A stretch of DNA of 64,000 bases, from contig OZ001293.3 in assembly GCA_963921275.4 (NCBI GenBank), positions 736,001 through 800,000 on the forward strand, given 5' to 3'. The DNA is from an uncultured Hormoscilla sp. Its GTDB lineage: Bacteria > Cyanobacteriota > Cyanobacteriia > Cyanobacteriales > Desertifilaceae. Both the position numbers and the translations under genes were made by a program. Under the pieces are notes generated by a model, which did not search any database, was not told where the DNA came from, and saw only the letters and a program-made list of their open reading frames with translations. Positions 13,733 through 59,801 of this stretch are shown one piece after another (positions within the stretch are counted from its first letter, which is position 1; each line of letters begins with the position of its first letter).

Positions 13733-15507
13733 ATGCTGACTCTAGAAAATATCTACGAAATTTATGAAAGACATAAAGATGCCTTCAATGCTAGAGTTGA
13801 AGAGTTTAAACTGGGAGACAAAAGGTTTAACTTTAACGATAGAAAATCAATTTTAGGAATTGTTAATCTTTCCACAGATTCTTGGTATAAAAACAGCGTC
13901 TGTTATAATCCAGAGCAAGCTGTACGTCGTGCAATGGTACAGAAAATTCAAGGTGCAGATATCATAGACATTGGTATAGAATCTACAGTGCAAACAACAG
14001 AGAGAGTCGATGCTTTTAAACAAAACAGTAAAGTTTTGCCAGTTCTGGAAAGATTAAGTCAAGAATGTGTTTTAACTTCAGTGGAAACTTATTATCCTGA
14101 AGTTGTCAGAGAATGTTTAAAGGCTGGGGCAAATGTTATTAATTTGACAGGAGCAGAGAAAAGGGAGAAAATTTACCAAATTGTGTCTGAGTTCGATGCG
14201 GGAATTATTATGTGTTACGTGCAAGGGAAAAACGTGAGGGAGTTGGGAGACCTTAAGGTTGGAGACGATCCAATAGATTTAGTGTACGATTATTTCGCCC
14301 GAGAAGTGGAAACAGCAACTAAATTGGGTGTCCGAAAGATTTTTATCGATCCTGGAATTTGCTTTAGCTACAGCAATCTTTACACAAAAGAGGAATTCTA
14401 TTCGTTGCGTATTTGATATCAGATAACAACTCTTTTAAATAGTTTTGGATGGGGTCGAGCCGGGAATCGCTTCCCGACCCTCCCTTGAGGAACCGGACTT
14501 GCGATTTTCACCGCATCCGGCTACTGGGTACTAGGCCCTTTTCATAGGTAGACTTAATAGGAATTACTTCCGTTAGCCCTTGCCGCCTGTCTTTTCTTCC
14601 CTTTCCTGGTTTAGCGAGTGGTTGTTCTGATAACCGTTAGTATCACCATTTTCAAGTCAGTTTTACCAGTTATCCATACCTTATCCTCCACTTGCGTTTC
14701 GGATTAGTTCCGTGGCTTTTTAGGATTACTCATTCCAGCAGCTTCCTAGTATCACCGACCCACGTCAGCGCTGGCTACCCAGCATCATCTACATTACTGT
14801 AGATGTTATCCCAGGAATTACCCCGGGCATTCGCTTCTTGGGCCATCCCTCCCCCCGTGGCTTGCGCTTAACATCTAACTTGTCCTGATGGACAGCACAC
14901 GAGAGGTTACTTCGTTCCCTAACAACATTTCGCGATACCTTTAGGTCCACACTATACCCCGGGAGCTATTTGAGTACTATATTAGCCAGAGTCTAAAACT
15001 AATACTAGCTACCATTTCCTTTTTAGGCCAGCGCATATAGCCTTATTTCGCTGGTTCCTTATAACGAGGCTTGCACATGTTTGCCTGCTCTAACCTTGGA
15101 TATCTTTCCTAGCGGCGTCACCGGCTTAGGCTGCCAGTTATCCTACATTTGAGTCCTCGCTTAGCACCACGATGATGTCGCTTCGTAGCACCGAGGACCG
15201 GTGTCACCCCCGTACCTGGGGGGAGGGGAATTTAACCCCCATGCGGTCAGAGTTCCCGGCTAATGAAACCGGGCTAGCGTTCCGTGTTTGACCACGTTAG
15301 GCTAGAACGAATCGCACAGACTCAGGAGGTTAGGGTTTCCAATTTGCAACCAAGTCCCCACTGCATCGGAATGTTTTGCAGAAGAGTTCAGAAGTTCTCA
15401 AACTTTTACTGCAGTGCTGGCGATATTGGGAAAAACAGATCTTATGAGAACTCATGAAGTGCCTAAAGTTAAGGCTGTTTTGGATACTCTGAGTTTATTT
15501 GAGTAGC
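13733..15507 (+). pseudogene. folP: Dihydropteroate synthase-like gene with a nonsense codon and an antisense intron insertion
   Basis: 'GIVNLSTDS', 'IDIGIEST', 'FIDPG'; TGA at 14414-14416; removing 14447-15317 rejoins 'LLNSF|RLRRLGFPI...RTHEV...FE*'. Confidence 0.8.
14447..15317 (-). mobile_element. ORF-less group II intron, copy 1 (871 nt)
   Basis: 5' GTGCGATTCG; DV AGCCGGATGCGGTGAAAATCGCAAGTCCGGTTC; DVI ends GACCCCATCC; EBS1 AGACTC (14989-14994) is complementary to IBS1 GAGTCT; excision restores the host frame. Confidence 0.95.
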
Positions 15508-15623
15508 GACATTAGGAGAGTGCGAGGTGACAGCGCGATCGCAGCGCGAAGTGTGGAAGAGGATTTGCGATCGGTCTCCCCCGAGCTCGCTACTTGCACA
15601 AAAGGGGGGACACCGTCGGATGA

Positions 15624-16169
15624 TTAGTTCCGCTGGATAGATAAAGTCACTCCAGAACAATCTACTTTTTCGACCAGTTGACCGATCGTCTCTCGGGAGA
15701 CTGGTTCTATCCAGTCGGGAGCTATTTCCGCCAATGGCACCAAAACAAAAGCTCTCTGGGTCATTCTCGGATGTGGAATTTGCAATTCGGGGGTTTCCAG
15801 GATTAAATCCTCAAATAATAGTAAATCCAAGTCTAGGGTTCGCGGTCCCCAACGCTCTTGACGGACTCGACAAAACTGGTCTTCAATCCCTAGTATAGTC
15901 TTGAGTAATTCTTGGGGATTTAGTTCTACTTCTAGGAGCGCACAACCATTGATATAATCCGGCTGTGATGGACCAATGGGGACAGTTTTGTACCAGCTAG
16001 AGTAGGTTTTGACGGTAATGCCGGGCGTTCGATCGAGGGTTTTCAGGGCCGCTTCTAGGGTGGCCAGGGAGTCCCCCAGGTTACTGCCCAGAGCGATCGC
16101 GCTTTGGGTGAGCTTTGTGGTTGCTGCCTTGTCAGGGTTTAAGACCATCACTTGCGGGAAGTTTGTCAT
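15624..16169 (-). CDS. folK: 6-hydroxymethyl-7,8-dihydropterin pyrophosphokinase, copy 1
   Basis: 'ALGSNLGD', 'WGPRTLDLDLL', 'IPHPRM..RAFVLVPL'. Confidence 0.92.
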   Translation of the reverse strand: MTNFPQVMVLNPDKAATTKLTQSAIALGSNLGDSLATLEAALKTLDRTPGITVKTYSSWYKTVPIGPSQPDYINGCALLEVELNPQELLKTILGIEDQFCRVRQERWGPRTLDLDLLLFEDLILETPELQIPHPRMTQRAFVLVPLAEIAPDWIEPVSRETIGQLVEKVDCSGVTLSIQRN

Positions 16170-16386
16170 ATAACACGTTCACGAGCCGTACCATTGTAAC
16201 CCGTTCGGTAGTTCTTCAGCGGCAAATTCGATGTGAAGAACCCGCCGATGGCTGGGTTGGCCTGCTGGTAGGGAGGAATGGACTAGCAATGGCTTCATCA
16301 CCAGCACTCCGCCAGACTTAACAGTAGTAGTTATAGCATGTTTTTTGAGATTTGCAATTGTTTCCCGTGGGATAATTCCCCGATTA
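16170..16386 (-). pseudogene. Duplicated 3' fragment of the PhyH-like dioxygenase
   Basis: Near-identical to ~21434-21650. Confidence 0.8.
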
Positions 16387-16500
16387 TTTGATGTTGTCTT
16401 TCACTATAATAAAAGTGCAGAAGCAGCCAAACAAGCGAGTCAAGAAGCTGCTAACCACGGAGTCAAATCTATTACCATGCAAGCATATATTACCAAACTT
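16386..16500 (+). pseudogene. Internal fragment of an SDR paralog
   Basis: Aligns with 13003-13117 (FDVAFHYNKSAEA...ADITKL). Confidence 0.8.
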
Positions 16501-20821: not shown

Positions 20822-21433
20822 CTATACATACAATTCCCACAAAGCTTGGTTCTCTACCTTAAGAATATCTTTATAATTCAATTTCTGCTTCTTGTCCTCA
20901 ACATCCAACCTCCTCACTCCCGAACAGTCTGCCTTTTCGACCAGTTGGGCGATCGCCTCTCCGGAGACTGGTTCTCTCCAGTCAAAAGCAATTTCCGCCA
21001 ATGGCACTAAAACAAAAGCTCTCTCATTCATCCGGGGGTGAGGGATTTCCAGTTTCGGCGTAGAGAGAATCAAATCGGCAAATAACAGTATATCTAAATC
21101 GATAGTTCGCGGTCCCCAACGTTCTCGACAGACTCTGCCAAACTTGCGTTCAATGTCTAGCAATGTCTCTAACAATTCGGACGGACTTAGCTGTACCTCT
21201 AAGATAGCACAGCCATTGAGATAATCTGGTTGTGGCGGTCCTATGGGTGCCGTATTGTACCAGCTAGAGTAGGCTTTTACGGTAATGCCGGGCGTTCGAT
21301 CGAGGGTTTTAAGGGCCGCTTCTAGGGTGGCCCAAGAGTCCCCTAGGTTGCTGCCCAGAGCGATCGCGCTTTGGGTGAGCTTTGTGGTTGCTGCCTTGTC
21401 AGTTAATACCATCACTTGCGGTAAGTTTTTCAT
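20822..21433 (-). CDS. folK: FolK copy 2
   Basis: Same HPPK motifs as copy 1. Confidence 0.92.
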   Translation of the reverse strand: MKNLPQVMVLTDKAATTKLTQSAIALGSNLGDSWATLEAALKTLDRTPGITVKAYSSWYNTAPIGPPQPDYLNGCAILEVQLSPSELLETLLDIERKFGRVCRERWGPRTIDLDILLFADLILSTPKLEIPHPRMNERAFVLVPLAEIAFDWREPVSGEAIAQLVEKADCSGVRRLDVEDKKQKLNYKDILKVENQALWELYV

Positions 21434-25088: not shown

Positions 25089-25465
25089 AAATAGCCCTAC
25101 TTTACAAAAATTTACACAATTTTTCCTTGTGTAACCGGCGAATAACAGCAATAGCACAACCCACCAGTAGTAGGGTGGGCACCGCTCACCAGTAGCTAGA
25201 GCGCCGGTCAATAAACAGGGCTTGGAGTGCAGCATTGAGATCTCGAAGATACCTGCATCTATAACCCGGTTTATCGCTTATAGAACGCCGGTCAAGCGGT
25301 TCGACTTCGCGGTCTCAGAGGATAGAAAAACTGGCGATCGCCCCAACCCGGGCAGGCGAGACGCCCGCCCTACGAACCTGGAAACAAACCTGACGAAGAA
25401 CGGGACTCAGGACTGCCATCCTGTGGTAAGCTCTTGGGAATCAGTAATGGTACAGGAAAAAATAA

Positions 25466-35952: not shown

Positions 35953-35965
35953 TAGATGGTAGGAT

Positions 35966-35989
35966 GCTGCGGGGAAATATTCCCGCAGC
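35966..35989. terminator. Hairpin between convergent genes
   Basis: GCTGCGGG-GAAATATT-CCCGCAGC. Confidence 0.5.
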
Positions 35990-37623: not shown

Positions 37624-38418
37624 ATGGTGGAAATTCTGGAAATTGGCAATAAGGTAGTAAAAAGTGATGAAATCATATCCCTATTAACTCGTTATCAGTT
37701 AATGCCGCAAGTGGTGCGGGGTCTGCTGATCGACCAGGCGATCGCGGAGGTGACCTGTACTGAACAAGAAAGGTCTCAGGCGATCGCCGCAGTGGAAGCT
37801 CATCTGAAAATAACTGACCCCCAGGCAAAAGCGGCTTGGCTAGAAAGTCAAGGTCTGACATCTTCAGAACTGGAGGCGATCGCGGTGCGGTCTCTGCTGC
37901 TAGACAAATTTAAGCAAGCGAACTGGGGCAAAAAAGTGGAATCATATTTCCTGACCCGCAAAACGAACCTGGATCAGGTAGTATATTCTCTGATCAGGAC
38001 GAAGGATGTGGGTCTGGCCCAAGAAATATTCTTCCGGATCCAAGAAGAAGAACAGTCCTTTGCGGAATTGGCACGAGAACATTCTCAGGGACCGGAAGCC
38101 CATACGAGGGGTCTATTAGGTCCGGTGCCCATATCTCAGCCCCATCCGACATTGGGAAAAATCTTGTCGGTCTCTCAACCAGGTCAACTATGGCCGCCTC
38201 GGAACTTGGGGGAATGGTTTGTGATTGTCAGGTTAGAAAAAACGATCCCAGCTCAACTAGATGACGGCATGCGTCGTCAATTGATGGATGAATTGTTTGA
38301 AAACTGGCTCCGGGAAGAGATCCAAAAGAAAGGCAAGATCGAGAGAAAGGACCAAAAGCCCCAGGCTCAAAGCGATGCTCACGCCCCAATTTACTTGACT
38401 CCTGGTATCGTCGGCTAG
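37624..38418 (+). CDS. PpiC/parvulin-type peptidylprolyl isomerase
   Basis: 'SFAELAREHSQGPEA..RGLLGP'; directly upstream of the T1SS ABC gene. Confidence 0.85.
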   Translation: MVEILEIGNKVVKSDEIISLLTRYQLMPQVVRGLLIDQAIAEVTCTEQERSQAIAAVEAHLKITDPQAKAAWLESQGLTSSELEAIAVRSLLLDKFKQANWGKKVESYFLTRKTNLDQVVYSLIRTKDVGLAQEIFFRIQEEEQSFAELAREHSQGPEAHTRGLLGPVPISQPHPTLGKILSVSQPGQLWPPRNLGEWFVIVRLEKTIPAQLDDGMRRQLMDELFENWLREEIQKKGKIERKDQKPQAQSDAHAPIYLTPGIVG

Positions 38419-38637
38419 TCGAGGAGCAGTTGTATTAGAGGTAGCTAGTGGATAAGCTGAAAAAAAAGTAATAAAAAGGAAATAGAGGGAGAGGGAAATT
38501 GTCGGGTAAAAGAAGATAGATAAAAAAGTGGAAATAATGGCGGGCAGATGCCGGAAAAAGTAGAAGGTAAAAATCTCAAAGCCATTAGTGAGGAGACAGA
38601 AAAACCAGCAGAAAAAACCAGAAGATAGTCAGGAAAA

Positions 38638-41600
38638 ATGACCCAAGCCGTATCCCAGTCACAAATAGAAGGGTTTATCAGAGAAGTTTCTCCCTTCTCA
38701 AAAATCAGCCTCAGTGCCTTGCAACAGGTGATGGGGAAGTTTAAATTGTTGCGCTACAGGATTGGACAACCAATTTTGGTGCGGGAAAAACTACCAGCTT
38801 TTGTGTCGATCGTCTATCAGGGACAGGTGCGCCAGCTGGGATACGACCAGCGGATGCAAATGCCTGCGAGCTTGAAATTGGCAGGACCGGGTGAAATCAT
38901 GGGTTGGGCAGGATTGGTGCGGGACATCGGGTGCGAAACGGCGATCGCATCGACGGAGGTAGTTTGCATTACAATCTCATCAGAGGACTTTTTAGACATG
39001 ATGAGACGCTCACCAGCTTTTGCCGAAGCATTGCAGCAAAGCTGCTCTCTGAGTGAGCTGTTTGAATTGTTGAGCCTGGAGTTGCAGCGCCGGGCCGATG
39101 GCACAGTAAATCTAAAAGAGTTATCGTCTCAGGTGTGGGAGAACAATCCCACAGTGGTGAATTTAGGGCCACCGAAGGTGCAAACAAAAGACCTGCTCTC
39201 GACCCTAGACCCAGAAAGAATTTGGCTCGTCAGTAGTGGCAGCATAGGGAATTTTACCACGGGCAGCAGATTGCCCCTGGAAACCCTGTCTCCAGAAAAC
39301 ATTGAGACCCTGGCGATCGCAGGTTATAGTCGGAGCAAAGGATCGAGATTGTTGGGGTTGCGTCTGCCAGCAGAACTGCCCCGGACGGGCAGTCCTCCGG
39401 TGGCGGCGGAAACTCCGACCCAGACAAATGGCACTCTGGTCTTGGCTCAAAAAGCAAGCGCTATTAGCACTACCCAGGAGGCAGGAACAGCAGAAATTAG
39501 CTCCTTGGAGGAGATTCCCTATGGGCCCGATCGCCCTCCAGAACTGGAACAAGACCCCCTAGCGCCAGCACCGAAATTTCCCTTCGTGAGGGGAAGCGGA
39601 CCGATAAATGCCCCCCTAGCTTGCTTCCACATGTTGAGTAAGCACACCGGAGCCAAGTTTCGCCGGGACATCCTGGAGAAAATTTTAAAGGACCAGCTCA
39701 ACAGAACTGGACAAATATCCATGCAAGCCTGCGGGGCGATCGCGGAAATGATGGGTATGCGAGCGCAACTAGTAGAAGTGCCTGCCAGTTCAGTTAACCG
39801 CTTGAAAGCACCAGCACTGATTCAGTGGCAAGACAGCTTTGCCATTCTTTACCAGATTACGGAAAAAAATATGGTAATAGCGGTGCCGCAAAGGGGGCTG
39901 ATTAAAAAGCGTGCTGGTGATTTTGCCGAAATATGGGGGGATAAAGGTCAGGTACTGCTGATCCAACCTCCTCCTGGCGAACAAAGAGAAAAGTTCGGTT
40001 TCCGCTGGTTTATCCCCGCTGTCCAAAAATATCGCGGCATCCTCACCCAAGTCTTCATCGCCTCTTTCTTCGTGCAGCTGTTTAGCCTTGCTAATCCCCT
40101 GATTACCCAGGTGATTATTGATAAGGTTTTAGTACAGCGGTCTCCCGATACCCTGGACGTGCTGGGGGCATTGTTACTAGGGGTGGCCATATTTGAAGGG
40201 CTGCTGACCTGGTTGCGAACTTACCTGTTTGTAGACACGACTAACCGCATTGACCTGGGTCTGGGTGCGGAAGTTATCTCTCACTTGCTACGCTTGCCTC
40301 TAAATTACTTCGATCGCCGTCGGGTTGGGGAACTGGCGGGTCGGATTAACGAATTGGAAAATATCCGCAAGTTTCTCACAGGTACGGCACTGACGGTGGT
40401 CCTGGATGCGGTCTTTTCTGTAGTTTACATCGCGGTGATGTTTTACTATAGCTGGCTGCTGAGTATCTGGGCTCTGGCAGTAGTACCCATGTTAGGCTTG
40501 TTAACCCTGTTAGTATCACCCATAGTACGGCGCCAGTTACGCCATAAGGCAGAGCGATATGCTGACGTGCAGAGCTACCTGGTGGAAGTGCTAGGGGGGA
40601 TCCAGACGGTTAAAGCCCAGAATATAGAACTGAAATCCCGCTGGCAATGGCAAGAGCGCTACGCTAAATATATCAGTGCGGGTTTTAAGTCGGTGCTGAC
40701 TTTCAGCACGGCAGGTGCCTTGAGCGGTTTCTTGAACAAGGTGTCGGGACTGGCAATCCTCTGGGTGGGTGCGGGTCTGGTGCTATCGACAGCCTCATCG
40801 GATAATCCCTTTACCCTAGGTAAGCTGATTGCCTTCCGGATTATTGCTGGCTATGTTACTAGCCCCCTGCTGCGCTTGATTCAACTCTGGCAGAACTTCC
40901 AGGAAACGGCTCTGTCGATAGAACGACTTAGCGATATCTTAGATGCAGCCCCAGAAGCAGATGAGATTAATCGCCAGAATATCCCCATGCCAGATGTTCA
41001 AGGTGGGGTGACCTATGAAGAGGTCTCTTTCCGGTTTAACACTAGCGGTCCTCTGCAACTGACTAATGTGAATTTGGATTTTCCCGTTGGCAGCTTTGTG
41101 GGCATAGTCGGTCAGAGTGGGTCTGGTAAGAGTACGCTGATGAAGCTGTTGCAGCGCCTCTACGAACCTACTTCGGGTCGGATTAAAATCGATGGCTATG
41201 ATATTAGCAAGGTGGAACTTTACTCTCTGCGCCGTCAGATAGGGGTGGTACTGCAAGATACTTTGCTATTTAATGGCACGGTGCAGGATAATATTTCCCT
41301 GACTAAACCCGAAGCTACTACTGATGAAATAATTGAGACGGCAAAAATAGCAGTGGCTCACGATTTCATTATGGAACTTCCCCAGGGTTACAATACGGTG
41401 GTGGGAGAACGGGGCTCATCTCTGTCAGGGGGACAGCGACAACGGATCGCGATCGCGCGCACGGTCTTGCAGAAACCGAAGCTGCTGATTTTGGATGAAG
41501 CAACTGGCGCTCTGGATTACGATTCCGAGCGACAAGTATGCAATAACTTGGCATCAGCATTTACAGGGGAAACGGTGTTTTTTATCACTCACCGCCTGTC

Positions 41601-41733
41601 TACAGTAAAAAATGCCGATATAATCATCATGATGGATAAGGGTTCTCTCGCAGAAATGGGTACTCATGATGAACTGATGGCGTCTAAAGGGCGTTACTAT
41701 TGCCTCTTTCAACAACAAGAGTCGCAACTGTAA
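38638..41733 (+). CDS. hlyB: Type I secretion ABC transporter (cNMP-like + C39-like + TMD + NBD)
   Basis: GQSGSGKS, LSGGQRQR, ILDEAT; six-TM region. Confidence 0.92.
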   Translation: MTQAVSQSQIEGFIREVSPFSKISLSALQQVMGKFKLLRYRIGQPILVREKLPAFVSIVYQGQVRQLGYDQRMQMPASLKLAGPGEIMGWAGLVRDIGCETAIASTEVVCITISSEDFLDMMRRSPAFAEALQQSCSLSELFELLSLELQRRADGTVNLKELSSQVWENNPTVVNLGPPKVQTKDLLSTLDPERIWLVSSGSIGNFTTGSRLPLETLSPENIETLAIAGYSRSKGSRLLGLRLPAELPRTGSPPVAAETPTQTNGTLVLAQKASAISTTQEAGTAEISSLEEIPYGPDRPPELEQDPLAPAPKFPFVRGSGPINAPLACFHMLSKHTGAKFRRDILEKILKDQLNRTGQISMQACGAIAEMMGMRAQLVEVPASSVNRLKAPALIQWQDSFAILYQITEKNMVIAVPQRGLIKKRAGDFAEIWGDKGQVLLIQPPPGEQREKFGFRWFIPAVQKYRGILTQVFIASFFVQLFSLANPLITQVIIDKVLVQRSPDTLDVLGALLLGVAIFEGLLTWLRTYLFVDTTNRIDLGLGAEVISHLLRLPLNYFDRRRVGELAGRINELENIRKFLTGTALTVVLDAVFSVVYIAVMFYYSWLLSIWALAVVPMLGLLTLLVSPIVRRQLRHKAERYADVQSYLVEVLGGIQTVKAQNIELKSRWQWQERYAKYISAGFKSVLTFSTAGALSGFLNKVSGLAILWVGAGLVLSTASSDNPFTLGKLIAFRIIAGYVTSPLLRLIQLWQNFQETALSIERLSDILDAAPEADEINRQNIPMPDVQGGVTYEEVSFRFNTSGPLQLTNVNLDFPVGSFVGIVGQSGSGKSTLMKLLQRLYEPTSGRIKIDGYDISKVELYSLRRQIGVVLQDTLLFNGTVQDNISLTKPEATTDEIIETAKIAVAHDFIMELPQGYNTVVGERGSSLSGGQRQRIAIARTVLQKPKLLILDEATGALDYDSERQVCNNLASAFTGETVFFITHRLSTVKNADIIIMMDKGSLAEMGTHDELMASKGRYYCLFQQQESQL

Positions 41734-41822
41734 AGTGGAAATATCAAAGAGAAAATGGAGCAATTGTTAATGGTTATTGACCGTTAGCAATTCACCATTT
41801 CCCACGAACAACTGAGGGACAA

Positions 41823-43343
41823 ATGAAAGCAGAGAACATAGAAGTAAAAAAAAGAGATAAGGAAATCTTTGTCGAACAACCGGTAATCCTAGAACGGCAA
41901 ATTATCTGGTCGCAAGTTTTGGTATGGCTGCTGCTGGGGGTGACGAGCTTTGCTATAGTCTGGGCAGCAGTAGCAAAAATTGATGAAGCTGTGCCAGCTA
42001 TAGGGAAATTGGAACCGGAAGGTTCTGTAAATGAAGTGAAGGCCCCAACGACAGGTGTAGTGGAGGCAGTTTATGTAGAAGATGGAGAATATGTCAAAGA
42101 AGGGGACCTATTAGTTACCTTTGAAGAAGACGCCCCAGAAGCAGATATAGAGTCCCTAACCAAGTTGCGGGAGACTTTGCTAGAGGAAAGCAAGTTTTAC
42201 AAGGATCAGGTGCATGGGGGGACTCAGGGCGGTCCTTCAGAATTGGTAGCGCTGGTGCGGCTGAAAAATGCGTTGCAAGATGAAAATGTATTTCTGACAG
42301 CGGAGATTGGCGGGTACGACCCGGAAGCGGAAATCAGCGGGGAGTTCAATGCCAACCAAAGACGGTTACTGAGAGCTAGTCGGGATGAATATCGCAGTAG
42401 AGTGGAAGCTGCGAGATTGCAGGTTAGAGAGCTAGAAAAACAACTTTCCCAGACAGAAGACCGCTTAGCAGCAACCAAGGAAAGGTTGAAAAAATCTCAA
42501 CAGACTCTCGCCCTCAATCAAGCAACTCTGAAAAGACTAGAACCGCTGGTGGAGGAAGGCGCGGTGGCGCAGTTGCAATACGACCAACAAAAACAAGCGG
42601 TGTTGGTTCGGGAAGATGAGGTGTTGTCCCGTGAAGGGGAGATTCAGCAGCTAATTATGGAAATTCAGCGCCTGAAAGTGGCAATTTCTCAGGCGAAAGA
42701 ACAGATGCAAAATACGAGGGATATCTCGGCGAAAGATGTTCTAACTCGTATTGCCGAAAACCAGAAACGAATTGCCGAAATTGATACCCAATTGAGTCGG
42801 GCAAAGCTGGAAAATCAGAAGCGATTGACGGAAATAGAAGGGGAGCTAGTTAAGGCCAGACAAGCTCTGCGATACAGAGAAGTGCGATCGCCTAAAGATG
42901 GCGTGGTATTCGATCTGCAAGTTGGTCCTCAATCTGTAGCCCAGGCGACAGATATAATCGTGAAGATCGTGCCGAATGACGAATTGTTGGCAAAGGTATA
43001 TCTCCAGAATAAAGATGTCGGGTTTGTGAAGGAAGGGATGGAGGTAGAAGTAGACGTGTCGTCCTTTCCGCCCTCGGAATTTGGCACTATTCCTGGGAAA
43101 TTGATCTGGGTGGGTTCGGATGCGTTAGAACCAACGCAAATTCGCCCCTACTATGCGTTTCCGGCGAAGATAGAGCTGTCAAGACAGCACTTTAATGTGG
43201 GAGAACCTCCTCATCAAAAGCAGCTGCGACTGCAATCGGGAATGGAGGTGAATACGAGGATTAAGGTGCGCAAACGCACGGTGATGAATCTCTTGTTCGA
43301 TAAGTTTGACACTAAGGTCCGCAGTCTGGAAACGGTTCGTTAG
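41823..43343 (+). CDS. hlyD: HlyD-family membrane fusion protein
   Basis: N-terminal TM, lipoyl-like halves, long coiled coil. Confidence 0.92.
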   Translation: MKAENIEVKKRDKEIFVEQPVILERQIIWSQVLVWLLLGVTSFAIVWAAVAKIDEAVPAIGKLEPEGSVNEVKAPTTGVVEAVYVEDGEYVKEGDLLVTFEEDAPEADIESLTKLRETLLEESKFYKDQVHGGTQGGPSELVALVRLKNALQDENVFLTAEIGGYDPEAEISGEFNANQRRLLRASRDEYRSRVEAARLQVRELEKQLSQTEDRLAATKERLKKSQQTLALNQATLKRLEPLVEEGAVAQLQYDQQKQAVLVREDEVLSREGEIQQLIMEIQRLKVAISQAKEQMQNTRDISAKDVLTRIAENQKRIAEIDTQLSRAKLENQKRLTEIEGELVKARQALRYREVRSPKDGVVFDLQVGPQSVAQATDIIVKIVPNDELLAKVYLQNKDVGFVKEGMEVEVDVSSFPPSEFGTIPGKLIWVGSDALEPTQIRPYYAFPAKIELSRQHFNVGEPPHQKQLRLQSGMEVNTRIKVRKRTVMNLLFDKFDTKVRSLETVR

Positions 43344-46764: not shown

Positions 46765-47282
46765 GGCGGAACCTTGACCGTGGGTACTCTGCGAACCTTG
46801 AACAATGCAGTATTTATTTGGTAAGTTCCAGCTTTAAGGATAGCTAGTTGCTGACCTCTCTGCCCCCCATTCTTAATAAATGCTTCTGCATCCTGGAAGT
46901 CATTGCACTCAACAACTTTACCAAAGTTTTGACCCGGAGGTAGGGCAGCACCATTTTTCGCCTCGACTATGCCAACTTCACTTGCTTCAATCTGGATGAC
47001 GTTATTTTCTGTTATACTCTCAGGCGGAACCTTGACCGTGGGTACTCTGCGAACCTCGAACAATGCAGTATTTATTTGGTAAGTTCCAGCTTTAAGGATA
47101 GCTAGTTGCTGACCTCTCTGCCCCCCATTCTTAATAAATGCTTCTGCATCCTGGAAGTCATTGCACTCAACAACTTTACCAAAGTTTTGACCCGGAGGTA
47201 GGGCAGCACCATCTTTCGCCTCGACTATGCCAACTTCACTTGCTTCAATCCGGATGACGTTATTTTCTGTTATACTCTCAGG
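46765..47282. repeat. 258-bp (86-codon) tandem duplication x2
   Basis: 46767-47024 vs 47025-47282 differ at about three positions. Confidence 0.92.
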
Positions 47283-47603
47283 AGGTTTGAGGAAATTGGT
47301 TCAGTTGATTGAGTGTTTTGGTTCGGATCTTTTGAACCTGTCTGCTTAATCTGAAGCTTTGCCAGGATCTCAAAGGCGAAGGCACTGGCATGAGCGGAAG
47401 ATTTTTCCTGTCGATCCCGTTCCGATTCTAAAAAATCGTCATTTTTGCCCTCAATTAAGTCGGAAATACCTCTAATCACGATAGCCTTAATATTGGGGTA
47501 GGCAAAGGCGGCGCTCAGGAAACCAAAACCTTCCATCTCAACCGCGATCGCGTCGTTATAACTTTCTCTCAGAAATTTGAAAATCTTTGACTGTTTGGAG
47601 GCA

Positions 47604-48530
47604 GTGCGATTCGTTCCGGCATAAGCCAGTAGGTGAAAGTCGGGTCTGGCTCTATCAGCCAGATAACTCTGGTTATCATGGGGGTTAAATTCCCTTTCCC
47701 CAGGTACGGGGGTCGAGGGTACTACCGGTCGGAGGTGCTACGGAGCCACATCGCCGTGGTGCCTCCCGAGGACTTAAATGTAGGATAACTGGCAGCCTAA
47801 GCCGGTGACGCCGCTAGGAAAGATGCTAATGGTTAGAACAAGCGAACCTATGTAAACCTCGTTAACCAGAACCAGCGGAAGAAGGCTTATGCGCTTGCCC
47901 AAAAAGGGAAATGGTAGTTAGTATTAGCTCTTGCCTCTGGCTAATAACGTACTCAAAGAACTCTCGGGGTATAGTAGGAACCTAAAAGCATCGCGAAATG
48001 ATACCAGGGAACGGAGTAACCTCTCGTGAGCTGTCCCCATTTGGACAAGTTAGATGTAAAGCGCAAGCCACGAAGAGGAAGGATGTCCTAAGAAGCCAAC
48101 GCCCGGGGTAATGCTTGTGGATATGCAGACGTAGGACGGATATGGTAAGACACCCTTGGGAAAAGTAACCTTAATGTCACAGAACTAGGAAGAAATTCCA
48201 AAAGTACGAATCTTGGATTCAAATCTTAGCCAGGTAAAGTTCAGAGCCCCTACGAAAAGCGGAAAGCAGAATGGGGAAGATGTTAGTAAAGAGCGGCGAG
48301 TATGGTTTGCTGAACTATCCTCCGCGAACCTTCCGCAGCTCAGTACTTAAACGGTCCAATAGGATTGACCATAAGGGGTAAAATTTCAAAGGGTAAGGGA
48401 CAACGGGGGTAACCCCCAGTAATCCTACTGATGACAACAGCTTACCAACCAGTAGCCGTGTGCGGTTCCAGTCGCTCTTCAGGTTTCGCTCTTGGAGGGT
48501 TGGGGAGTGATTCCCAGCTCGACCCCGACC
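47604..48530 (+). mobile_element. ORF-less group II intron 3 (927 nt) with a damaged DV
   Basis: 5' GTGCGATTCG; 3' GACCCCGACC; EBS1 TGCCTC (47932-47937) is complementary to IBS1 GAGGCA; excision restores 'GEKVI-ASKQSK...AVEMEG'. Confidence 0.92.
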
Positions 48531-49784
48531 ATGACTTTTTCCCCGGCGGCAATGAGAGCCACAAATACATGGGGTTGCTGGCTCGAACTGCTGAGCCGTT
48601 GCAGCCATTCCTCTTTCCGTGCTTCTGCTTTCGCTCTTTGTACCAGTGCATAGCTTGACTGTCCCAAGTCAGGTCGGGTAAAGAACTGGTCTTCGTCTCC
48701 TACTTTTCCTGCCTCATAGCCGTAAACCTTCGTCCCTACGACCACATCACCGATTGTAACGTCTTTGATTCCTCCAGCAATACCCACAAACAAGAGGATG
48801 TGAGGCTGGAAGTAGGCGATCGCCCGTTCCGCTGCCGCTGCGGCCCTCGCATTACCAGCCTCAATCTCGGCAATCCCGACCTCCCATTCCTTGCCGTTGG
48901 CGATGAATTTTCCCCGTTCGTAAACGGTTCCCCCGGGATGAACATCCTCCCGTAGCTCTTTCAAATGGGTCCGGACTGCTAAATATTCGACGGGCAGGGC
49001 AGTCACTATTATGGCACGACGTTTCAATTTTTCTGCCGTTAGAGGTACTTCATCGGGAATTGATAAACTTAGTCCGTTAATATCTAACAGGCGATCGCGT
49101 CTTGGCAACTTGCTGAATTGTTCTGTCGCACCTTCGACATCTCCAATTGTAAAATTTGCCAGACCACGAGCATAAGTAATCAATAGTGGAGCGAATTCGC
49201 ATTCTTTCAAAGGTTCGGCAAAAGTTTCTACTAATGAGGATAGGCGAAATAACTCTTTCCAATTTTTCTCTTGCAACCTCAACCGGATCTTTTCCAATAA
49301 CTTGCGACTAAGTTCCGTTGGTTGAGTATAAGCAAGAGCTGTCCAATATTGTGCTTCTGCTAAATTTTTTGTGTGACTATTTTCCCCAGCAAATTTTGCG
49401 TTACATAGTTAGTCAAAAAATCCGCTAGTTTCTCCAATTGCTTTTGACCAAAACGCTCGTCCTCTTTGAGTTCTGTTAACAGCAAGTTGCGGACAGCAAT
49501 ATCCATCTCGTAAAGCTCATACCCGACCTCACGACACAAACGAGAGAGAAGTACGCGAGCAACTGCCGTCCAAGGAGCTTGGGGTACGAAGCGAAGCCAA
49601 ATTTTGTAAAGCAGGTCAGGAGTGAGTACCAGCGGAAACGCCGCATGATAAGCTAAGTCCAGGTGTGTCCGGTCGAATTCTCCGGCAAATCCGACCACAC
49701 GCTCGATAGCAATTTCACAATCCGTTGTACTCGCTTCACTCATCATGCTTACACCGTCCACCGATCGGGACGCTCCCAATAAAC

Positions 49785-50128
49785 TTAGCGTCCTCGCAAA
49801 GTATTAATAACTGCATTCAATCCCTCGCGACTCATTTCAAACATTAGCACATTACGAGCAATATCGCCAGCAGTGGTATCCTGCCAACTATCCTCGGGCA
49901 TGGGATTGAGCCAAGCGTAATAACGGACTGACTCAGCGAGCTGATTGAGGAACTTTTGGGTGTACTCAACACGCTCTGGATTGTAGTTACCTCGTGCTGC
50001 ACCTGCATCGCTGACGATTAGGACCCCTGCTTTGTCAGCAATTGATGTCAAAACCTCTGTAACTGGCTGGGCTTTGAGGCGCGTCGGGTCACTATACAGA
50101 TATTTTTCAGGATAATTGTAGAAGTAAT
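49785..50128 (-). pseudogene. C-terminal part of a vWA-domain protein
   Basis: 'YYFYNYP', 'VLIVSDAGAARG', 'WLNPMP..SW..TTA'; 5' part lost at the IS. Confidence 0.8.
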
Positions 50129-51179
50129 AGACATCTCCAAAAATAAAACCCTTGTCAGCTCTGGGTTTTAAGCTCTACCTCCCATGCTCACATATGTTAC
50201 TCAAACGGCAGAATCAGGGTTTGATAGATTTCCTGTTAATAAAGAACTCCAAAGGTGGTACTGGTTAATCTCAAGTTTTTCAGAGCTATCAACAGATTCT
50301 AATACTTCTAAAATTCGCGCAACCAACCCAACTTTTGTCGAAATTACCGATTCATATTTATCAATATTTAACCGAAATCGCTCGCTGGCAACCCGGAAAA
50401 TTTTTACCAATGACCTGTTCAACGAAAACGGGAAGAAAAATCTCTATTTTCTTCTTTTTGTTTAGCTGTTAATTCCTGTTTTTTCGGTTTGAAAAGTTTT
50501 GAGGTTCTCCAATATAGGCTTTATCCCCTGCAAAAATTTGATCTGGATCGAAAACGACGCTCGCAAGATTTATATCGCTTGCTGGGCCTCTTTCTCCAGA
50601 TACAACATCGACAAGATCTGCACGCTTCGCTACCAGGTAAAACATTGATTTTTCAAAGTATTTCTTCTTACCTGAGTAAAACTTTTTCTGCTCTTCATAG
50701 TCTTTAGGTCTTGGTATGGCTTGCGCTATCGACTATCAACTCATATTCTGTGTTTGGATAAATATTCTTCATCTTCTCCATTTTTTTTGTTCAAGTAAAC
50801 GGCAAAGCGGAAAAGATATTGCCAATAATTAAAAATATCATTAGCTGTAGATTCACTGACGCCAAAAACTATACCTAATACTTGGAATGTTAATCCTTGA
50901 CGCAGATACATCAAAGTTAAAATTATTTGCTCTTCTACTAATAATTTAGCTTTCGCCCCCACGACGTATCAATCTAGTTTTGTGTTCTTCCACATTTTCT
51001 TTATGATTTTTATCCAACTTTTTAGCAATTGCAATAAGTTGTATTAAGTTTTTATAGCTGATACCGATGAGCCGTTTTGCTTCTTTAGGCTTGGCTTGCA
51101 AATATGTCCAGGTAATACTCGTCACAAAATTAAATTTTCAAATCTTATTATAGCATAAATTTCTATTTTGGAGATGTCT
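50129..51179 (-). mobile_element. IS5-family (ISL2-like) element, degraded
   Basis: TIRs AGACATCTCCAAAA / TTTTGGAGATGTCT; HTH 'EQIILTLMYLRQGLTFQVLG..FGVSESTA'; 'IFRVASERFRL'. Confidence 0.8.
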
Positions 51180-51524
51180 GTTTAACTTTGGAACGTTGTT
51201 CCTCATCAAAACGTGCCAGTTGAGCATCGTGGAGACGACCGACTGCATCGTCAGTGTAGAGTCCATCTCTTGCCTTAGTTGTAGACTGGATGTACCAAGG
51301 TTCATAGGGTAAAACTCGTCAGCCACCGCTTGTGCCAAGCGAGTTTTACCGCATCCAGGATCCCCCTTCAACAACAATGGACGTTTCTGTAAAAAAATAG
51401 TGAGATTCACTGCCTCAATTAATGATTCCGAAGGCAAGTAAGGCTGAAGTCCATAACGTTTGTAATCCTCTGGGGAAGGTTGCTTTGTTCCCGTATAGAC
51501 GCGAGATATTACTGAATCAACCAT
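51180..51524 (-). pseudogene. N-terminal part of a MoxR AAA+ ATPase
   Basis: 'PYLPSESLIEAVN', 'RPLLLKGDPGCGKTRLA.AVA'; shifted frame 'WYIQSTTKARDGLY.DDAVGRLHDAQL'. Confidence 0.85.
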
Positions 51525-53488
51525 TTTGCTAATTTTCCTTCCCAACTAGTGCGTGTCATCAATTAAGCCATATTACAGCTGCCGCGAGGTAGATGGCACC
51601 CAAGAAATTGCGAGCCGTTTTATCGTAGCGTGTCGCCAGAGCCCTGTATTGCTTGAGTTTTTGGAATAGATTTTCAATTAGATGCCGCCACTTGTACATT
51701 TCTTCATCGTATTCTCTGTGTTCTGTGCGGTTACTTTTTGGAGGAATGACAGCCATCCAATCCGCCTCTTTCAGGCGCTCGAGCACACGTTGTTCCGCAT
51801 CATAGGCTTTATCTGCAAGCAGCGCGCCAATCTCACCGATTTTATCCAATAGCACGTCAGCGCCTTTCCCGTCGTGGGCTTGGCCAGGGGTAAGATGAAA
51901 TCCTGTGGGATTGCCTTGGGCAATCGCAAGTGGCATGAATCTTTGTCGATAGTCCCCCTTTACTACGGCCTATGGCTTGGGTTTCGCACGTATCTGAGGG
52001 TGTTTTTTTTTGCACCCGCACGCTCGTTGATGGGCACGCAGGATGGTGGCATCAATCGCGGCGTATTCGTTATCGGCGTCTGAGGCCAAGACATCGAATA
52101 CCTGCTTCCAAACTCCCTTTTCAGACCAACGGGTATGGCGGGTATGAACAACCCGAAAATCCCCAAAACACTCCGGTAAATCCCGCCAGGGAATGCCAGC
52201 ACGATATCGATATAACACGGCAGAACACGAATAATCTATTGTTCTTGGCTGTAGCGCCTGGGTCACCCTCTTTACCAGGTAAAAGGTGTTCGATCCGTTC
52301 CCACTGGTCGTCTCGCAAGCCATAGCGTCTCATATCATGCCCTCTTGATTGTTATTGCTGGATAAGGACTCCATACCGTATCCATCTACTTCTGTCAAGC
52401 AATTTGATTGATGACACACCCTAGAACCACAGTAGTAACAAATTCTTTGATAAACAAGTTCTGGAACGCCATTTTGATACTCTCCTAGCAAAGTATCGAC
52501 CAACAAACTTTCAGGTACGACTTCTGCTGCAACTGCCATTCTCAACCATTGAGAAATATGCTTTCGTGAAAATCTGGTTGTGGGAGACAAGTGCAGAGGA
52601 ACTCTGGGGTATTCCGACTGTTCGACTTGCGAAGCCAAAGGCATTCCAGATTTACATACTTTACCCTTATTATCAACTAAAAACATCACTAAGTAAGTAT
52701 CGCTTAAGTTTACGCTCTCTACAATAGGTTGCCAAAAATGTTCGATTACCTCGGGAATAAATCCTATACAAGTACGGTGAACTTCAGTAAAGATAAAAAT
52801 CAAATGCTGATTTGTCAAGCATTCAATAACTCTAGGGATAACTTGGTCTGGGGAAAAATCATTGTGGGAACCAGTCAAGTCCCTAGCAACCGCATTCCAT
52901 AGTTCAGAAATGTCAACCGGCCATTTTAATCTTGATTTGCCGACCATTCCGCAACTCTGGTAATCGAGAGAATCGAGTAACTAAAATTTCTTGTCCAAAC
53001 TTTTCTTCGCCATGAATTAAAAATGCGGCTGTTCTCTGGAGCTATTTTTGTAATCTTAGAGCGTTTGTCACCTCCTCTTGCTGTTCGTCAAAATCGATTT
53101 CAAGAATTGAATTAAAAAGTCGCCTTTCATCATATGAATATATTGGTGATTGACATTTTTGAGGCTGGTGCTGAAGCGCTTTAATTTTAGCATGCAGATC
53201 ATCCAAGCTCTTTCGACGATCGTCACCTTCAGGACAAGCTGTTGCCAAAGCCTTCACAAAAATAGGAAATATCCAGCCATATTTTTCGTGTTTATTTTCT
53301 ATAAAACTTGGTAAGTTTAATTCAAATAAACTTTCACAATCTGATCCTTGTTTGAGTTTGAAATTTACAAAATAGAGAGCTTCATGTCCTCGACAAAATG
53401 AACGGAGCCTCTGATAACTTTCAAATTGATCGCATTTCAAAATTACCTGTCTGCATAATGCATTCAGTTCATGTGGTAGTCCTTCCAC
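51509..53488 (-). pseudogene. EAD-like domain + inactive STAND (iSTAND) protein
   Basis: In-frame TAG at 53042-53044, then 'RTAAFLIHGEEKFGQEILVTR' (degenerate P-loop); frameshift ~52920; 'EHFWQPIV', 'LVMFLVD'; tail 'CGS|SWEGKLAKWLIQ*' split by IS5. Confidence 0.78.
51547..52423 (-). mobile_element. IS5-family (IS427/IS1031-type, two-ORF) element, degraded
   Basis: TIRs GCGTGTCATCAAT / ATTGATGACACAC with CTAG on both sides; 'LRDDQWERI', 'GIPWRDLPE', 'ADKAYD', 'RHLIENLFQKLKQYRALATRYDK'. Confidence 0.88.
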
Positions 53489-53490
53489 AG

Positions 53491-55440
53491 TTAAGATCCT
53501 GAAAGATTATACTGCTCCAGCAATTGCTGGGAAACCTCCAAAGCATCCTGGTAATCTCTAACTAAATTTCGAAGTTCTTGCTCGGTCCCCACGCTGAGAC
53601 AATCCTGCAAATCAGGGGGGAATTCTTCCATCTCAAAAGCTTCGTTCGTCCTTTGCGGTCCCAACTTGGCATCTACTTCAACTTGAGTCTTACCAATAAT
53701 TTCTTTTATTTCTGGTAATAAGAACCCCCGTTGCTTGCGAGCTAATACCCGAACCTGAGTCAAAGTATAACGCCAGTCAATTGCCAGCTTGCGACGCTCT
53801 TGCTCGTTAGCAAGTTCGGCATCCAGGATTTGTTCTTTAACAGCTTCCAAGAGTTCCCACCAGGGCTCATCGCGAGCAATTTCCGGTCCCCGTCGCTTTA
53901 ATGCTAATACTTGAATGATAGCATAAGAAAAATCCGCAAGCGAACTCCCACTAATATCAGTTAGCTGTCCGTTTGCGTCTATTTTCAGTGAAGTCGGCAA
54001 AATTTCATCCCTGTGGGAGCCAACTACAACCCGGTAGCCCGCTTTCAAATCTTGGAGGTTGAGATCCATCGTGGAGGAGAAAATCTCATCTTGAGAGCCT
54101 TCACGCAGTAGAAAACTCACCAATTGCCCGACAATTTTACTCACTCTCAGAGCCACAGCCCAATCAGGTCGAAGTAGCGATACTTGAGCGACTAAACCAG
54201 TTTGTTCGAGTTGAGTCATTGGATGGGGTCGAGCCGGGAATCGCTTCCCGACCCTCCCTTGAGGAACCGGACTTGCGATTTTCACCGCATCCGGCTACTG
54301 GGTACTAGGCCCTTTTCATAGGTAGACTTAATAGGAATTACTTCCGTTAGCCCTTGCCGCCTGTCTTTTCTTCCCTTTCCTGGTTTAGCGAGTGGTTGTT
54401 CTGATAACCGTTAGTATCACCATTTTCAAGTCAGTTTTACCAGTTATCCATACCTTATCCTCCACTTGCGTTTCGGATTAGTTCCGTGGCTTTTTAGGAT
54501 TACTCATTCCAGCAGCTTCCTAGTATCACCGACCCACGTCAGCGCTGGCTACCCAGCATCATCTACATTACTGTAGATGTTATCCCAGGAATTACCCCGG
54601 GCATTCGCTTCTTGGGTCATCCCTCCCCCCGTGGCTTGCGCTTAACATCTAACTTGTCCTGATGGACAGCACACGAGAGGTTACTTCGTTCCCTAACAAC
54701 ATTTCGCGATACCTTTAGGTCCACACTATACCCCGGGAGCTATTTGAGTACTATATTAGCCAGAGTCTAAAACTAATACTAGCTACCATTTCCTTTTTAG
54801 GCCAGCGCATATAGCCTTATTTCGCTGGTTCCTTATAACGAGGCTTGCACATGTTTGCCTGCTCTAACCTTGGATATCTTTCCTAGCGGCGTCACCGGCT
54901 TAGGCTGCCAGTTATCCTACATTTGAGTCCTCGCTTAGCACCACGATGATGTCGCTTCGTAGCACCGAGGACCGGTGTCACCCCCGTACCTGGGGGGAGG
55001 GGAATTTAACCCCATGCGGTCAGAGTTCCCGGCTAATGAAACCGGGCTAGCGTTCCGTGTTTGACCACGTTAGGCTAGAACGAATCGCACAAATTCTGTA
55101 AAGGTTTATCTTGCCATACTATATATTTCAAGTTGACACGCAACCAGTCAGTAGAGCGGGCAGGCAACTAGTCAGTTAAATTGATACTGAGACCCAAGCG
55201 ACAAGCCTTATTTTTTTGCACGGAGGAGATCTTGTGGAGGCTTTGGGTCGAGTAATTTGGCTGAAAAGAGCTTTCGACTGAAGAACTAAAAGTGATAAAT
55301 CCAGGTTCAGTCAGCAAACCAGCTCTGTAGAATGCTTGGGCATCGTGCAGCCTAACTAGAAAGTAGCTGTTGTTTAAATATAGGTTGCACGGGGGGTTAG
55401 GTTGCTCTGGATAGTAAATAGAACTGACACTACTTAGCAT
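53491..55440 (-). pseudogene. Hypothetical protein of the conflict operon with a sense-strand intron and a nonsense codon
   Basis: Removing 54221-55090 joins '...DKPLQNL|MTQLEQTG...'; TAG at 55168-55170. Confidence 0.75.
54221..55090 (-). mobile_element. ORF-less group II intron, copy 2 (870 nt), near-identical to copy 1
   Basis: Same termini; I saw one substitution and one C indel versus 14447-15317. Confidence 0.95.
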
Positions 55441-57614: not shown

Positions 57615-57959
57615 GGCGTTGGATGGCTTGGAGCCATTTGACTTCTTCGCTCAGACCTTGGGGTTTGGGGGATGGACGCTGAGACTGCTGCTTTGAATCC
57701 ATTCGTAAATTTGTCAAACCTCCTACTATTCTAATGCTGTCCTTTTCTAGCAGGGGCGTATGTTTAACAAAAAATTACACGGTTGAGACTGATAAATACT
57801 CACCTCCCTCCACAACAATGCACGCCGGTCATAGTTAATGCCAAACTTAAGGGAAAGCTTTTCCGAATTTAGACAGAATTAATCACTTTAATGTTATGGA
57901 TTTATTTTACCCTAGTGTAAACCCGACCCAGAGCCTCTAGTATAATATCATTACCAGGC

Positions 57960-58258
57960 GGGTGTGCTCAAAACCCGTTGATCGTTCATGGGCCCTCCAG
58001 TCGTCGGATCCCCCCTGCGATGTCTCGCGAAGGCCGCGCCACATGCGCTGCGCGCACCGGGCTACTAGTCAGGAGCGATCGCACTACCCAAGAGACATCG
58101 CACCCCCCTTAAAAGATACTGTGGGCGAATTACCAGATCATGCGCTCAGAGCTCCCTGCTCCGCCTCGAAATGTTAAGAAATATGTGAGTAAGGCATAGA
58201 ATTGGCGTGGGGGGGTTTGGGGGGGATCCCTATGCAACAACTGCGCCTTCCACACCCC
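57960..58258. mobile_element. GGGTG-ended MITE related to 22511-22697
   Basis: GGGTGTGCTCAAAACCCGTTGAT...GGGATCCCTATGCAAC...CCACACCC; reverse-complement similarity to 22511-22697. Confidence 0.7.
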
Positions 58259-58973
58259 TTTTAACCCCAAGAGCGTCTAAACCCAGCCGCAGTAGGGCTA
58301 AAGGAGGGCGAGAGTCCCAATTGATCGCCAGCATAGTCTTACATTTTGGATGTGAGAGTAACCTCGGAGGTCAATACTTCGTAGGTTTTGGATATAGGTT
58401 GTCCGGAGCGAGGGGGGGGACAACCGCTCACAACTTATGCTCAATTGAGTTAACCCCCCCGTTCGCGCAGGCGTAGCCGTGGCGAAGCAGCAGCTAGCAA
58501 TCTCCCGGCTCGGGTGCTCCCGGCTCCCTGCTATCCCTTGAGGTATTGCCTCGGAGGTTACTTTTTTTTCAGTGCCAGCAAGCAGCACTAATAGGGCCAT
58601 TACGGACAAAGAAAAAAGAGCGTCCCAAAGTAGCCATCAACCTTGAAACCTATCGCCGGTCATAAAGCGAGCGGATTCTCAGAACAGACTGGCACCGAAG
58701 CTCAGGTCATCAATCACCGGCTGTACCCAAAAAAGATTGCCTCATCCAAAAATCAACCCCAAAAAAATCCCCAAGCCGCGTAACTCCCCCCAACTCCACC
58801 ACCCCATTTCAAGTCCCCACTAAGACCCCAGTAAGTTACCAGTAAGTTACCAGTAAGTCCTAAAATCCCGGATCCTGTACTAGATGCAACCGGAAAATAA
58901 ATCACATACTGAGATAGATAATTTTTCGACAAGCACCGGTCATCTCAACCCTGAAAAAACACATCCCCGGGTG

Positions 58974-59801
58974 ATTAGGGGTCTCCCTGGGAATAGCTTC
59001 GGAACCCTCCCGTTCGGAACCGGACTTGTGATTTTCACCACATCCGGCTACTGGGTAGTAGGGCCTTGTCATTGGTAGAATTACTAGGGATTACTCCCGT
59101 TGTTCCTTGTCTCATGCTATTTCACTCATCTACTGGTTTCTAGCCAGCCATCCATTCCTCATCATTATTGCTAATGAAGGGCTCATAACGTTTTTAGAGC
59201 TACTTTTACCCGAGACATCCTGCTATCACCGACCGACGTCTGCATATCCTAAGCATTCCCCGGCGTCTTCCGCATGCTCTTGTCCTGAAGGACTCGGCAT
59301 GCGGAAGACACCGCCTAGGCATTAGCTTCTTAGGCCATCTTTCCCACCTGCGGCATACGCTTCACATCTGACTGGTCCTTTCGGACAGCTCGCAAGGGGT
59401 TACTTCGTTCCCTGGTCTCCGGAGCGCGATACCTTTAGGTTCCTACTCTACCCCGGTAGCTTTTCGAGTACGATGTTAGTTACGAGCGACAACTAACACT
59501 AGCTACGTTGACTTTTGTCTCCGGTGTATACAGCCTTATTTCACCGGTTCTACATAACGAGGCTTACATAAGTTCGTTTATTCTAACCTTGGGTATCTAA
59601 CAAGCGCGGTGTCACCAGCTATGGCTGCCAGCTATCCTACATTTAAGTCCTCGCTGAGCACCAATGGTGATGTTACTCCACAGCACCTCACGCGGTTACC
59701 CCCGTACTTGGGGAGAGGGAATTTAACCCCATGAATACCAGAGTTCCTAGTTTCCTAGGCTAGCGTTCCGTATTACTACGTTAGGCTAGAACGAATCGCA
59801 A
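58974..59801 (-). mobile_element. ORF-less group II intron 4 (828 nt), UUGCG start, inserted in a MITE end
   Basis: 5' TTGCGATTCG; DV AGCCGGATGTGGTGAAAATCACAAGTCCGGTTC; 3' GACCCCTAAT; EBS1 CGCTCG (59483-59488) pairs with IBS1 TGAGCG; joined exons match the empty site at 10799-10821. Confidence 0.92.

Follow-up and report, generated by a model that had tools for sequence, protein, structure and literature searches.

Group II introns without an open reading frame (ORF) can proliferate in a cyanobacterial genome, and the strategy itself is already documented in Thermosynechococcus elongatus. T. elongatus carries 17 ORF-less TeI3 introns in six families defined by their exon-binding sites (EBS) 1-3; most copies occupy well-matched sites and some occupy poor ones, ribozyme motifs may be impaired, and twintrons occur (Mohr 2010, PMC2882425). 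The same study attributes the origin of TeI3 introns to ORF deletion from introns encoding a reverse transcriptase (RT), describes their experimental mobilisation by the 'driver' intron-encoded proteins (IEPs) of other introns, TeI4, and places the T. elongatus introns nearest a chloroplast-like (CL)/IIB1 intron (Mohr 2010, PMC2882425). For cyanobacteria at large, a later study reports large expansions of CL-type and ORF-less introns (Miura 2022, PMC8919778). In this work we describe a further example: four ORF-less introns, I1-I4, in 64,000 nucleotides (nt) of DNA from an uncultured Hormoscilla sp. (GCA_963921275.4, contig OZ001293.3, positions 736,001-800,000 of the forward strand). We refer to this whole stretch, whose gene content is cyanobacterial (e.g. 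PsbQ, DUF6464), as the window and give coordinates within it. Our reading, to which we assign a probability of about 85%, is that I1-I4 are non-autonomous group IIB retroelements that are supplied with RT in trans and retargeted through EBS1-3.

The window family shares much with TeI3/TeI4: a cyanobacterial host, ORF-less IIB ribozymes in families with different EBS1/2/3, a majority of well-matched sites with a few poor ones, catalytic decay in some copies, the presence of truncated copies, and introns that adjoin or interrupt other introns. The RT encoded in the window is also closest to T.el4h among solved structures. There are also differences. TeI3 introns have N- and C-terminal ORF remnants and close RNA kin with an ORF, whereas I1-I4 have no remnants and the RT-type introns are distant from them. 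Mobilisation of TeI3 in trans was shown experimentally, whereas for I1-I4 it is proposed from sequence. The long 3' tail, and the fact that two of the four window copies (I1 and I3) interrupt genes in antisense, likewise set the family apart from TeI3. EcI5 and other CL/IIB1 introns are similar in recognising targets through EBS1-3 and in having an associated IEP of the RT-X-D-En type; unlike EcI5, which is autonomous, I1-I4 have no ORF. By description only, a likeness extends to the Trichodesmium introns and twintron (PMC4649490), where ORF-less introns reportedly stand beside RT-encoding ones and one intron lies within another. Our literature search returned no paper joining 'Hormoscilla' to 'group II intron'. 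Dai and Zimmerly reportedly described archaeal ORF-less group II introns in 2003.

Results

Four ORF-less introns with exact boundaries

The sequence GCGATTCGTTC has four exact matches in the window, at the 5' ends of I1-I4 (Table 1). An nhmmer profile of the family recovered four full-length copies and one weak domain I match, 63658-63891(-), which is part of an RT-encoding intron. These results bear out the initial annotation, which had proposed four ORF-less introns of 828-927 nt on a shared ribozyme scaffold: the lengths are 871, 870, 927 and 828 nt, and none of I1-I4 contains an ORF of 90 or more amino acids (aa). The start motif that it proposed needs a qualification, since GCGATTCGTTC is present in all four copies but I4 opens with TTGCG (UUGCG in the RNA) and not with the GTGCG (GUGCG) of I1, I2 and I3, which agrees with the group II consensus GUGYG. 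When four intron-RT queries were compared with six ORF-less introns using tblastn, no match was significant; the best one (E 0.066) sits where one RT frame overlaps domain V.

I1 and I2 are recent copies of each other, with 869 of 870 positions identical and one 1-nt gap, and their flanks are unrelated. All remaining pairs among I1-I4 show 64-72% identity. Because I1 and I2 carry no RT and are nevertheless nearly identical at two unrelated sites, they would have had to borrow one. We infer, and the inference seems close to forced, that this pair was mobilised in trans.

For I1, I3 and I4 the 3' boundary could be established independently. Deletion of I3 (47604-48530) joins two antisense ORFs in one 343-residue frame, whose junction, GEKV-I-ASKQS, is colinear with intact homologues reading GEKVISSKQS or GEKVVASKE. 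Deletion of I1 (14447-15317) gives, on the opposite strand, ...YQITTLLNSF-RLRRLGFPICN, colinear with full-length dihydropteroate synthases (DHPS) reading YQIKTLLNSFRLRKLGFPICN; on our reading, if both I1 ends were moved by 2 nt, NSFRLR of DHPS would have G where R is conserved. The joined exons of I4 align, across the junction, with an empty paralogue (10762-10821; 90% identity over 60 nt). The boundaries proposed earlier are thus exact, by restoration of the host frame for I1 and I3 and by the empty site for I4. The Rfam alignment would place the intron end at ...CCCCAU; this was ruled out, since the host reading frames are restored only two bases further on. The restored host sequence and the empty site therefore favour 3' ends at ...ACCCCAUCC, ...ACCCCGACC or ...ACCCCUAAU. 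It follows that the distance between the bulged A of domain VI (I1, I2, I3) and the 3' end is 9 nt, compared with 7 in the Rfam consensus alignment, a further point on which the family is unlike EcI5. In group II introns the branch-point A is usually 7-8 nt from the 3' splice site and the last two intron bases are usually AY; here the ORF-less copies end in CC, and I4 in AU.

Target recognition through EBS1-3

The fold of domain I was predicted with RNAalifold from six sequences, namely I1, I3, I4 and three relatives, two ORF-less and one RT-encoding, from Hormoscilla metagenome-assembled genomes (MAGs). It comprises 88 pairs; 93.5% of the cells are paired, and in 40 of the 88 pairs both partners change. 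On every measure, all 500 shuffled controls stayed below the observed value; moving the partners by 1-3 columns lowered the paired cells to 37-47%. As the initial annotation had proposed, GGAACG closes domain I, pairing with 5' UUCGUUC. EBS1 forms the loop that caps a 9-bp hairpin (helix 336-344/354-362), and EBS2 is single-stranded, flanked by helices 269-274/383-388 and 285-290/306-311. EBS3 corresponds to the variable position in GGUA(N)AG and occupies the centre of a 3-nt bulge (columns 389-391) opposite a 4-nt strand (265-268), in a helix supported by covariation. We take this bulge to be the coordination loop of IIB introns (domain Id). Folding therefore puts the proposed elements in the loops where they had been expected: a hairpin loop, a single-stranded segment and a small internal loop. 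EBS3 pairs with position +1 and EBS1 and EBS2 pair with the 5' exon, which places the ORF-less introns in subgroup IIB.

To these four introns we added relatives from a scan of genome contigs with a 21-nt domain I pattern, which identified at least five loci (L001-L005), all in Hormoscilla MAGs. Seven sites were tabulated, those of I1-I4, L001a, L003a and L004a. Outside the table are L002a, of which only a 5' fragment (profile positions 1-275) is present, L005b, an RT-encoding intron ended by the contig edge, and L005a, which has the same flanks as L003a. Pairing was scored out of 12, counting Watson-Crick and G-U pairs of EBS1 (6 nt) with positions -6..-1, of EBS2 (5 nt) with -13..-9 and of EBS3 with +1. 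Introns score 9 (I1), 11 (I2), 11 (I3), 12 (I4), 12 (L001a), 10 (L003a) and 11 (L004a) at their own sites, that is, 9-12 at 7/7 sites, as opposed to 2-8 in 38 non-cognate comparisons with sites of a different EBS set. Complementarity between the EBS and the intron-binding sites (IBS) is higher at every tabulated site than in any non-cognate comparison. The individual introns vary in how selective this pairing is among 127,972 window positions scanned: the full 12/12 is reached solely by I4's own site, the scores of I3 (11) and I2 (11) are reached at 7 and 18 positions, respectively, and the 9 of I1 at 1031.

The EBS1/IBS1 pairs given in the initial annotation are correct (Table 1). EBS3 reads T,T,T,G,C,G,G and exon position +1 reads A,A,A,C,G,C,C, so that the pairs are Watson-Crick in 7/7 cases and of three types; the first four are those proposed earlier for I1-I4 within GGTA(T/G)AGT. 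For EBS2, the hexamer following CTCGTT is hypervariable between invariant flanks and, counted on the sequences, it does pair with -13..-8 in 5/6 positions for I2, I3 and I4 and in 2/6 for I1, as had been claimed; the true variable block is 5 nt and pairs with -13..-9. In L005b, pairing judged by eye is 6/6 for EBS1 and 4/5 for EBS2.

These observations make it very improbable that the family spread at the DNA level, by segmental duplication or recombination with no RNA intermediate. Similarity ends exactly at the intron ends, host sequence is restored to the nucleotide at three sites, and every site is complementary to the EBS of the intron that occupies it. Nothing specific speaks for such a process, beyond the mosaic of repeats and intron pieces at 58.9-64 kb of the window.

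RT-encoding introns and the origin of the ORF-less family

Two RT-encoding introns, both absent from the initial annotation, adjoin each other in the window (60174-61913 and 61914-64000, Table 1). The first, broken though of a candidate helper type, has domains V/VI that score 55 bits in Rfam and a frameshifted N-terminal RT region; domains I-III were searched for and none was found, its similarity to L005b beginning at L005b position 669. The ORF of the second breaks off within the HNH region, where it meets its neighbour. The two are tail to tail: 60174-61913 ends inside the HNH coding region of 61914-64000, which is on the opposite strand, and the remainder of the latter (the HNH end and domains V and VI) was not found beyond the former. 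This arrangement fits a truncated retro-insertion accompanied by loss of target DNA. Among solved structures, the T. elongatus T.el4h maturase (6ME0_C, E 2.9e-90) gives the best match to the RT ORF in 60174-61913. Among the 120 RT relatives listed, 12 besides the query's own are attributed to the genome of the window, from which they would appear to come, and three of these are 588-596 aa long with RVT_N, RVT_1, GIIM and HNH domains. In the Hormoscilla MAG loci, ORF-less copies lie 0.4-1.2 kb from RT-encoding intron sequence (3323-4219 and 4575-6399 in L005, 2803-3699 and 4898-5544 in L003, with the ORF-less copy given first). The flanks of L003a and L005a are identical, indicating either a duplicated region or redundant assembly.

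It could be asked whether I1-I4 are simply ORF-deletion derivatives of adjacent RT-encoding introns, served only by the cognate RT. The 5' end GTGCGATTCGTT is also found in the RT-encoding L005b, domain V resembles that of the 60174-61913 element (74-80% over 40-62 nt), and the two types occur close together, I4 about 370 nt from the RT element and L005a 355 nt from L005b. We nevertheless consider such an origin unlikely. The tblastn comparison of the six ORF-less introns found no ORF remnants, and the RT-type introns resemble the family only in short stretches of domains I and V, whereas two RT-type introns share 76% identity with each other over 520 nt. The combination that marks TeI3-type deletion derivatives, remnants together with close RNA similarity to a resident intron, was not seen among the introns available. 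No domain IV similarity was found between the ORF-less and RT-type introns either, so that a shared IEP-binding site cannot be claimed.

With some hesitation, we also put forward the idea that the ORF-less introns might be an old, self-standing non-autonomous lineage comparable to short interspersed nuclear elements (SINE-like) and not recent deletion derivatives. Such a lineage would be present in the window genome and in Hormoscilla MAGs, would have no ORF trace and an unusually long 3' tail past the branch site, and would use another lineage's RT, with the I4 sublineage landing on a dispersed repeat. We regard this as tentative, and it is more likely to be wrong than right.

Condition of the copies

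The Rfam model RF00029 covers domains V-VI and has a gathering score of 40 bits; I1 and I2 exceed it with 44.4 bits, and their domains V and VI fold canonically. I1, I2 and I4 have a canonical domain V, with AGC triad, 2-nt bulge and GNRA loop, which is destroyed in I3, while the domain VI helix with its bulged A is present in I1, I2 and I3. Judged from their sequences, I1 and I2 look catalytically competent.

A number of findings weigh against a family that is mobilised in trans and still functional. I3 has no match to the Rfam domain V/VI model at E<=1, its domain V helix and loop being lost so that no domain V fold forms, although domain VI is intact. I4 scores 39.3 bits, below the gathering score; its domain V is intact, but it has U at position 1 and the family domain VI helix is not formed. 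The domains V and VI that the initial annotation included in the shared scaffold are accordingly confirmed by Rfam for I1 and I2 and not for the other two copies, which we count as group II introns because the rest of the RNA is homologous. I3 and I4 are probably fossils. I1 and I2, though intact, may splice poorly where they are, because the IBS2 of I1 pairs in only 2/5 positions and the IBS1 of I2 has a mismatch; I2 combines full EBS2 pairing with a mismatch and a G-U pair at EBS1, and neither site looks like an ideal home site. I1 and I3 run antisense to the genes that they interrupt and hence cannot be spliced from host-gene mRNA, which makes them knock-out insertions. On the side of the helper, the RT genes of both window introns are broken and therefore unfit for this role, and the 12 RT relatives can only be presumed to share the genome of the window. 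An intact IEP-encoding intron with the scaffold of the ORF-less family, which the initial annotation had suggested looking for, was not found among the RT-type introns available (those of the window and L005b): 61914-64000 and L005b match the family only at 70-83% over 50-126 nt.

One might conclude from this that the family is extinct, with four fossil copies left by past retrohoming and EBS/IBS matches that are just its footprints. In addition to the lesions of I3 and I4, the MAG copy L001a has a mutated 5' strand of domain V, both window RT genes are pseudogenes, and further lesions in the host gene of I1, on our reading, suggest an old insertion. We think that extinction is rather unlikely. 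I1 and I2 differ by one substitution and one indel in 870 nt and have canonical domains V and VI, and the three full-length RT relatives seem to belong to the same genome.

Insertion sites and neighbouring genes

The folP-like gene interrupted by I1 has, on our reading, two more lesions shortly before the intron, within 13733-14446: a frameshift near residue 212 and a TGA in frame. Its 62-aa C-terminal piece alone gave nothing relevant in Pfam and PDB searches and was identified through by-eye alignment to full-length DHPS. Nearby are HPPK genes (15624-16169 and 20822-21433), PTPS, SDRs and glycosyltransferases, and the neighbourhood may be a decaying paralogous pterin cluster. When I1 was compared with a plasmid collection (blastn, distant mode), no match was obtained.

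The two halves of the nucleosidase gene containing I3 correspond to positions 2-139 (N-terminal, 48531-49297) and 168-230 (C-terminal, 47273-47603) of Pfam PNP_UDP_1, and the gene is otherwise open. I2 is in sense orientation, its last base one nt upstream of the ATG of the ORF 53491-54219(-). The I2/I3 region (47273-54219) contains conflict-system-like genes, namely the PNP_UDP_1 nucleosidase, bDLD1 (53042-53488), iSTAND (52330-52947) and an AAA fragment (51138-51545), and an insertion sequence (IS) element with two ORFs (51559-52323).

I4 targets the inside of a dispersed repeat, represented by 59802-60170 and 10700-10821, which contains inverted repeats and short motifs in tandem. The unoccupied copy at 10762-10821 is one base off I4's IBS1. 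Motifs like the I4 target also occur at 2021-2033 and 25183-25195, and the window contains 5 matches with <=2 mismatches where 0.98 would be expected. At 60030-60170, immediately 5' of the truncated RT intron, two GTGCGATTA motifs resembling the intron 5' end lie within palindromic CCCCCCAGAGGGGGG repeats. Elsewhere in the window, 34294-43343 looks like a type I secretion cluster, with an RTX-repeat protein followed by three ORFs, an ABC transporter (C39 peptidase and cNMP-binding domains) and an HlyD-family protein.

Table 1. Introns, their functional parts and targets, and associated features of the window (WC, Watson-Crick)
Feature	Position	Strand	Details
I1, ORF-less group IIB intron	14447-15317	-	871 nt, GUGCG...ACCCCAUCC; ends fixed via DHPS restoration
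I1 parts			EBS2 15057-15061; EBS1 14989-14994; EBS3 14954; domain V ~14491-14522; domain VI and tail 14447-14486
I1 target	15318-15330	-	IBS1 15318-15323 (6/6 WC); IBS2 15326-15330 (2/5); IBS3 14446
I2, ORF-less intron	54221-55090	-	870 nt; near-identical copy of I1
I2 parts			EBS2 54831-54835; EBS1 54763-54768; EBS3 54728
I2 target	55091-55103	-	IBS1 55091-55096 (4 WC + 1 G-U of 6, 1 mismatch); IBS2 55099-55103 (4 WC + 1 G-U of 5); IBS3 54220
I3, ORF-less intron	47604-48530	+	927 nt; ends fixed via nucleosidase restoration
I3 parts			EBS2 47865-47869; EBS1 47932-47937; EBS3 47972; domain V region ~48454-48485
I3 target	47591-47603	+	IBS1 47598-47603 (6/6 WC); IBS2 47591-47595 (4/5); IBS3 48531
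I4, ORF-less intron	58974-59801	-	828 nt, UUGCG start; ends fixed via empty paralogous site
I4 parts			EBS2 59550-59554; EBS1 59483-59488; EBS3 59448; domain V ~59018-59049
I4 target	59802-59814	-	IBS1 59802-59807 (5 WC + 1 G-U); IBS2 59810-59814 (5/5); IBS3 58973
Empty paralogue of I4 target	10762-10821	+	junction equivalent 10816/10817
RT-encoding group II intron, 5'-truncated	60174-61913	+	RT-X-HNH ORF 60337-61905; domains V/VI 61834-61911
Second RT-encoding intron	61914-64000	-	ORF in four pieces; domain I continues past window edge
Dihydropteroate synthase (folP-like) pseudogene	13733-15503	+	split by antisense I1; N part 13733-14446, C part 15318-15503
PNP_UDP_1 nucleosidase gene	47273-49297	-	split by antisense I3

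Discussion

The initial annotation regarded these introns as a non-autonomous, naturally reprogrammed family, and this view is supported by the lack of an ORF, the IIB-type placement of the EBS elements and the site-specific complementarity. A trans-acting RT, splicing and mobility at the present day, and a change of EBS that preceded insertion are what we infer beyond that. In the mechanism that we envisage, ribozymes of 830-930 nt would have all six domains and no coding in domain IV. An RT/maturase from a resident RT-encoding intron would bind the ORF-less transcript, which would then be spliced to give a lariat ribonucleoprotein and be inserted into DNA. The choice of site would be made by three pairings, EBS1 with -6..-1, EBS2 with -13..-9 and EBS3 with +1, and mutation of the short EBS loops would give rise to sublineages with different addresses.

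If so, the Hormoscilla introns represent a second natural case, outside Thermosynechococcus, of RT-less ribozymes spreading and changing their addresses through a few loop nucleotides. For annotation, the folP-like and nucleosidase genes should be described as genes interrupted by antisense insertions and not as short ORFs. I1 and I2 would make a convenient test substrate, given the exact sites, the empty paralogous site and the availability of intact and decayed copies. Cases of this kind are used as models for the multiplication of introns before the spliceosome, and they supply natural rules of targeting on which gene-targeting introns can draw.

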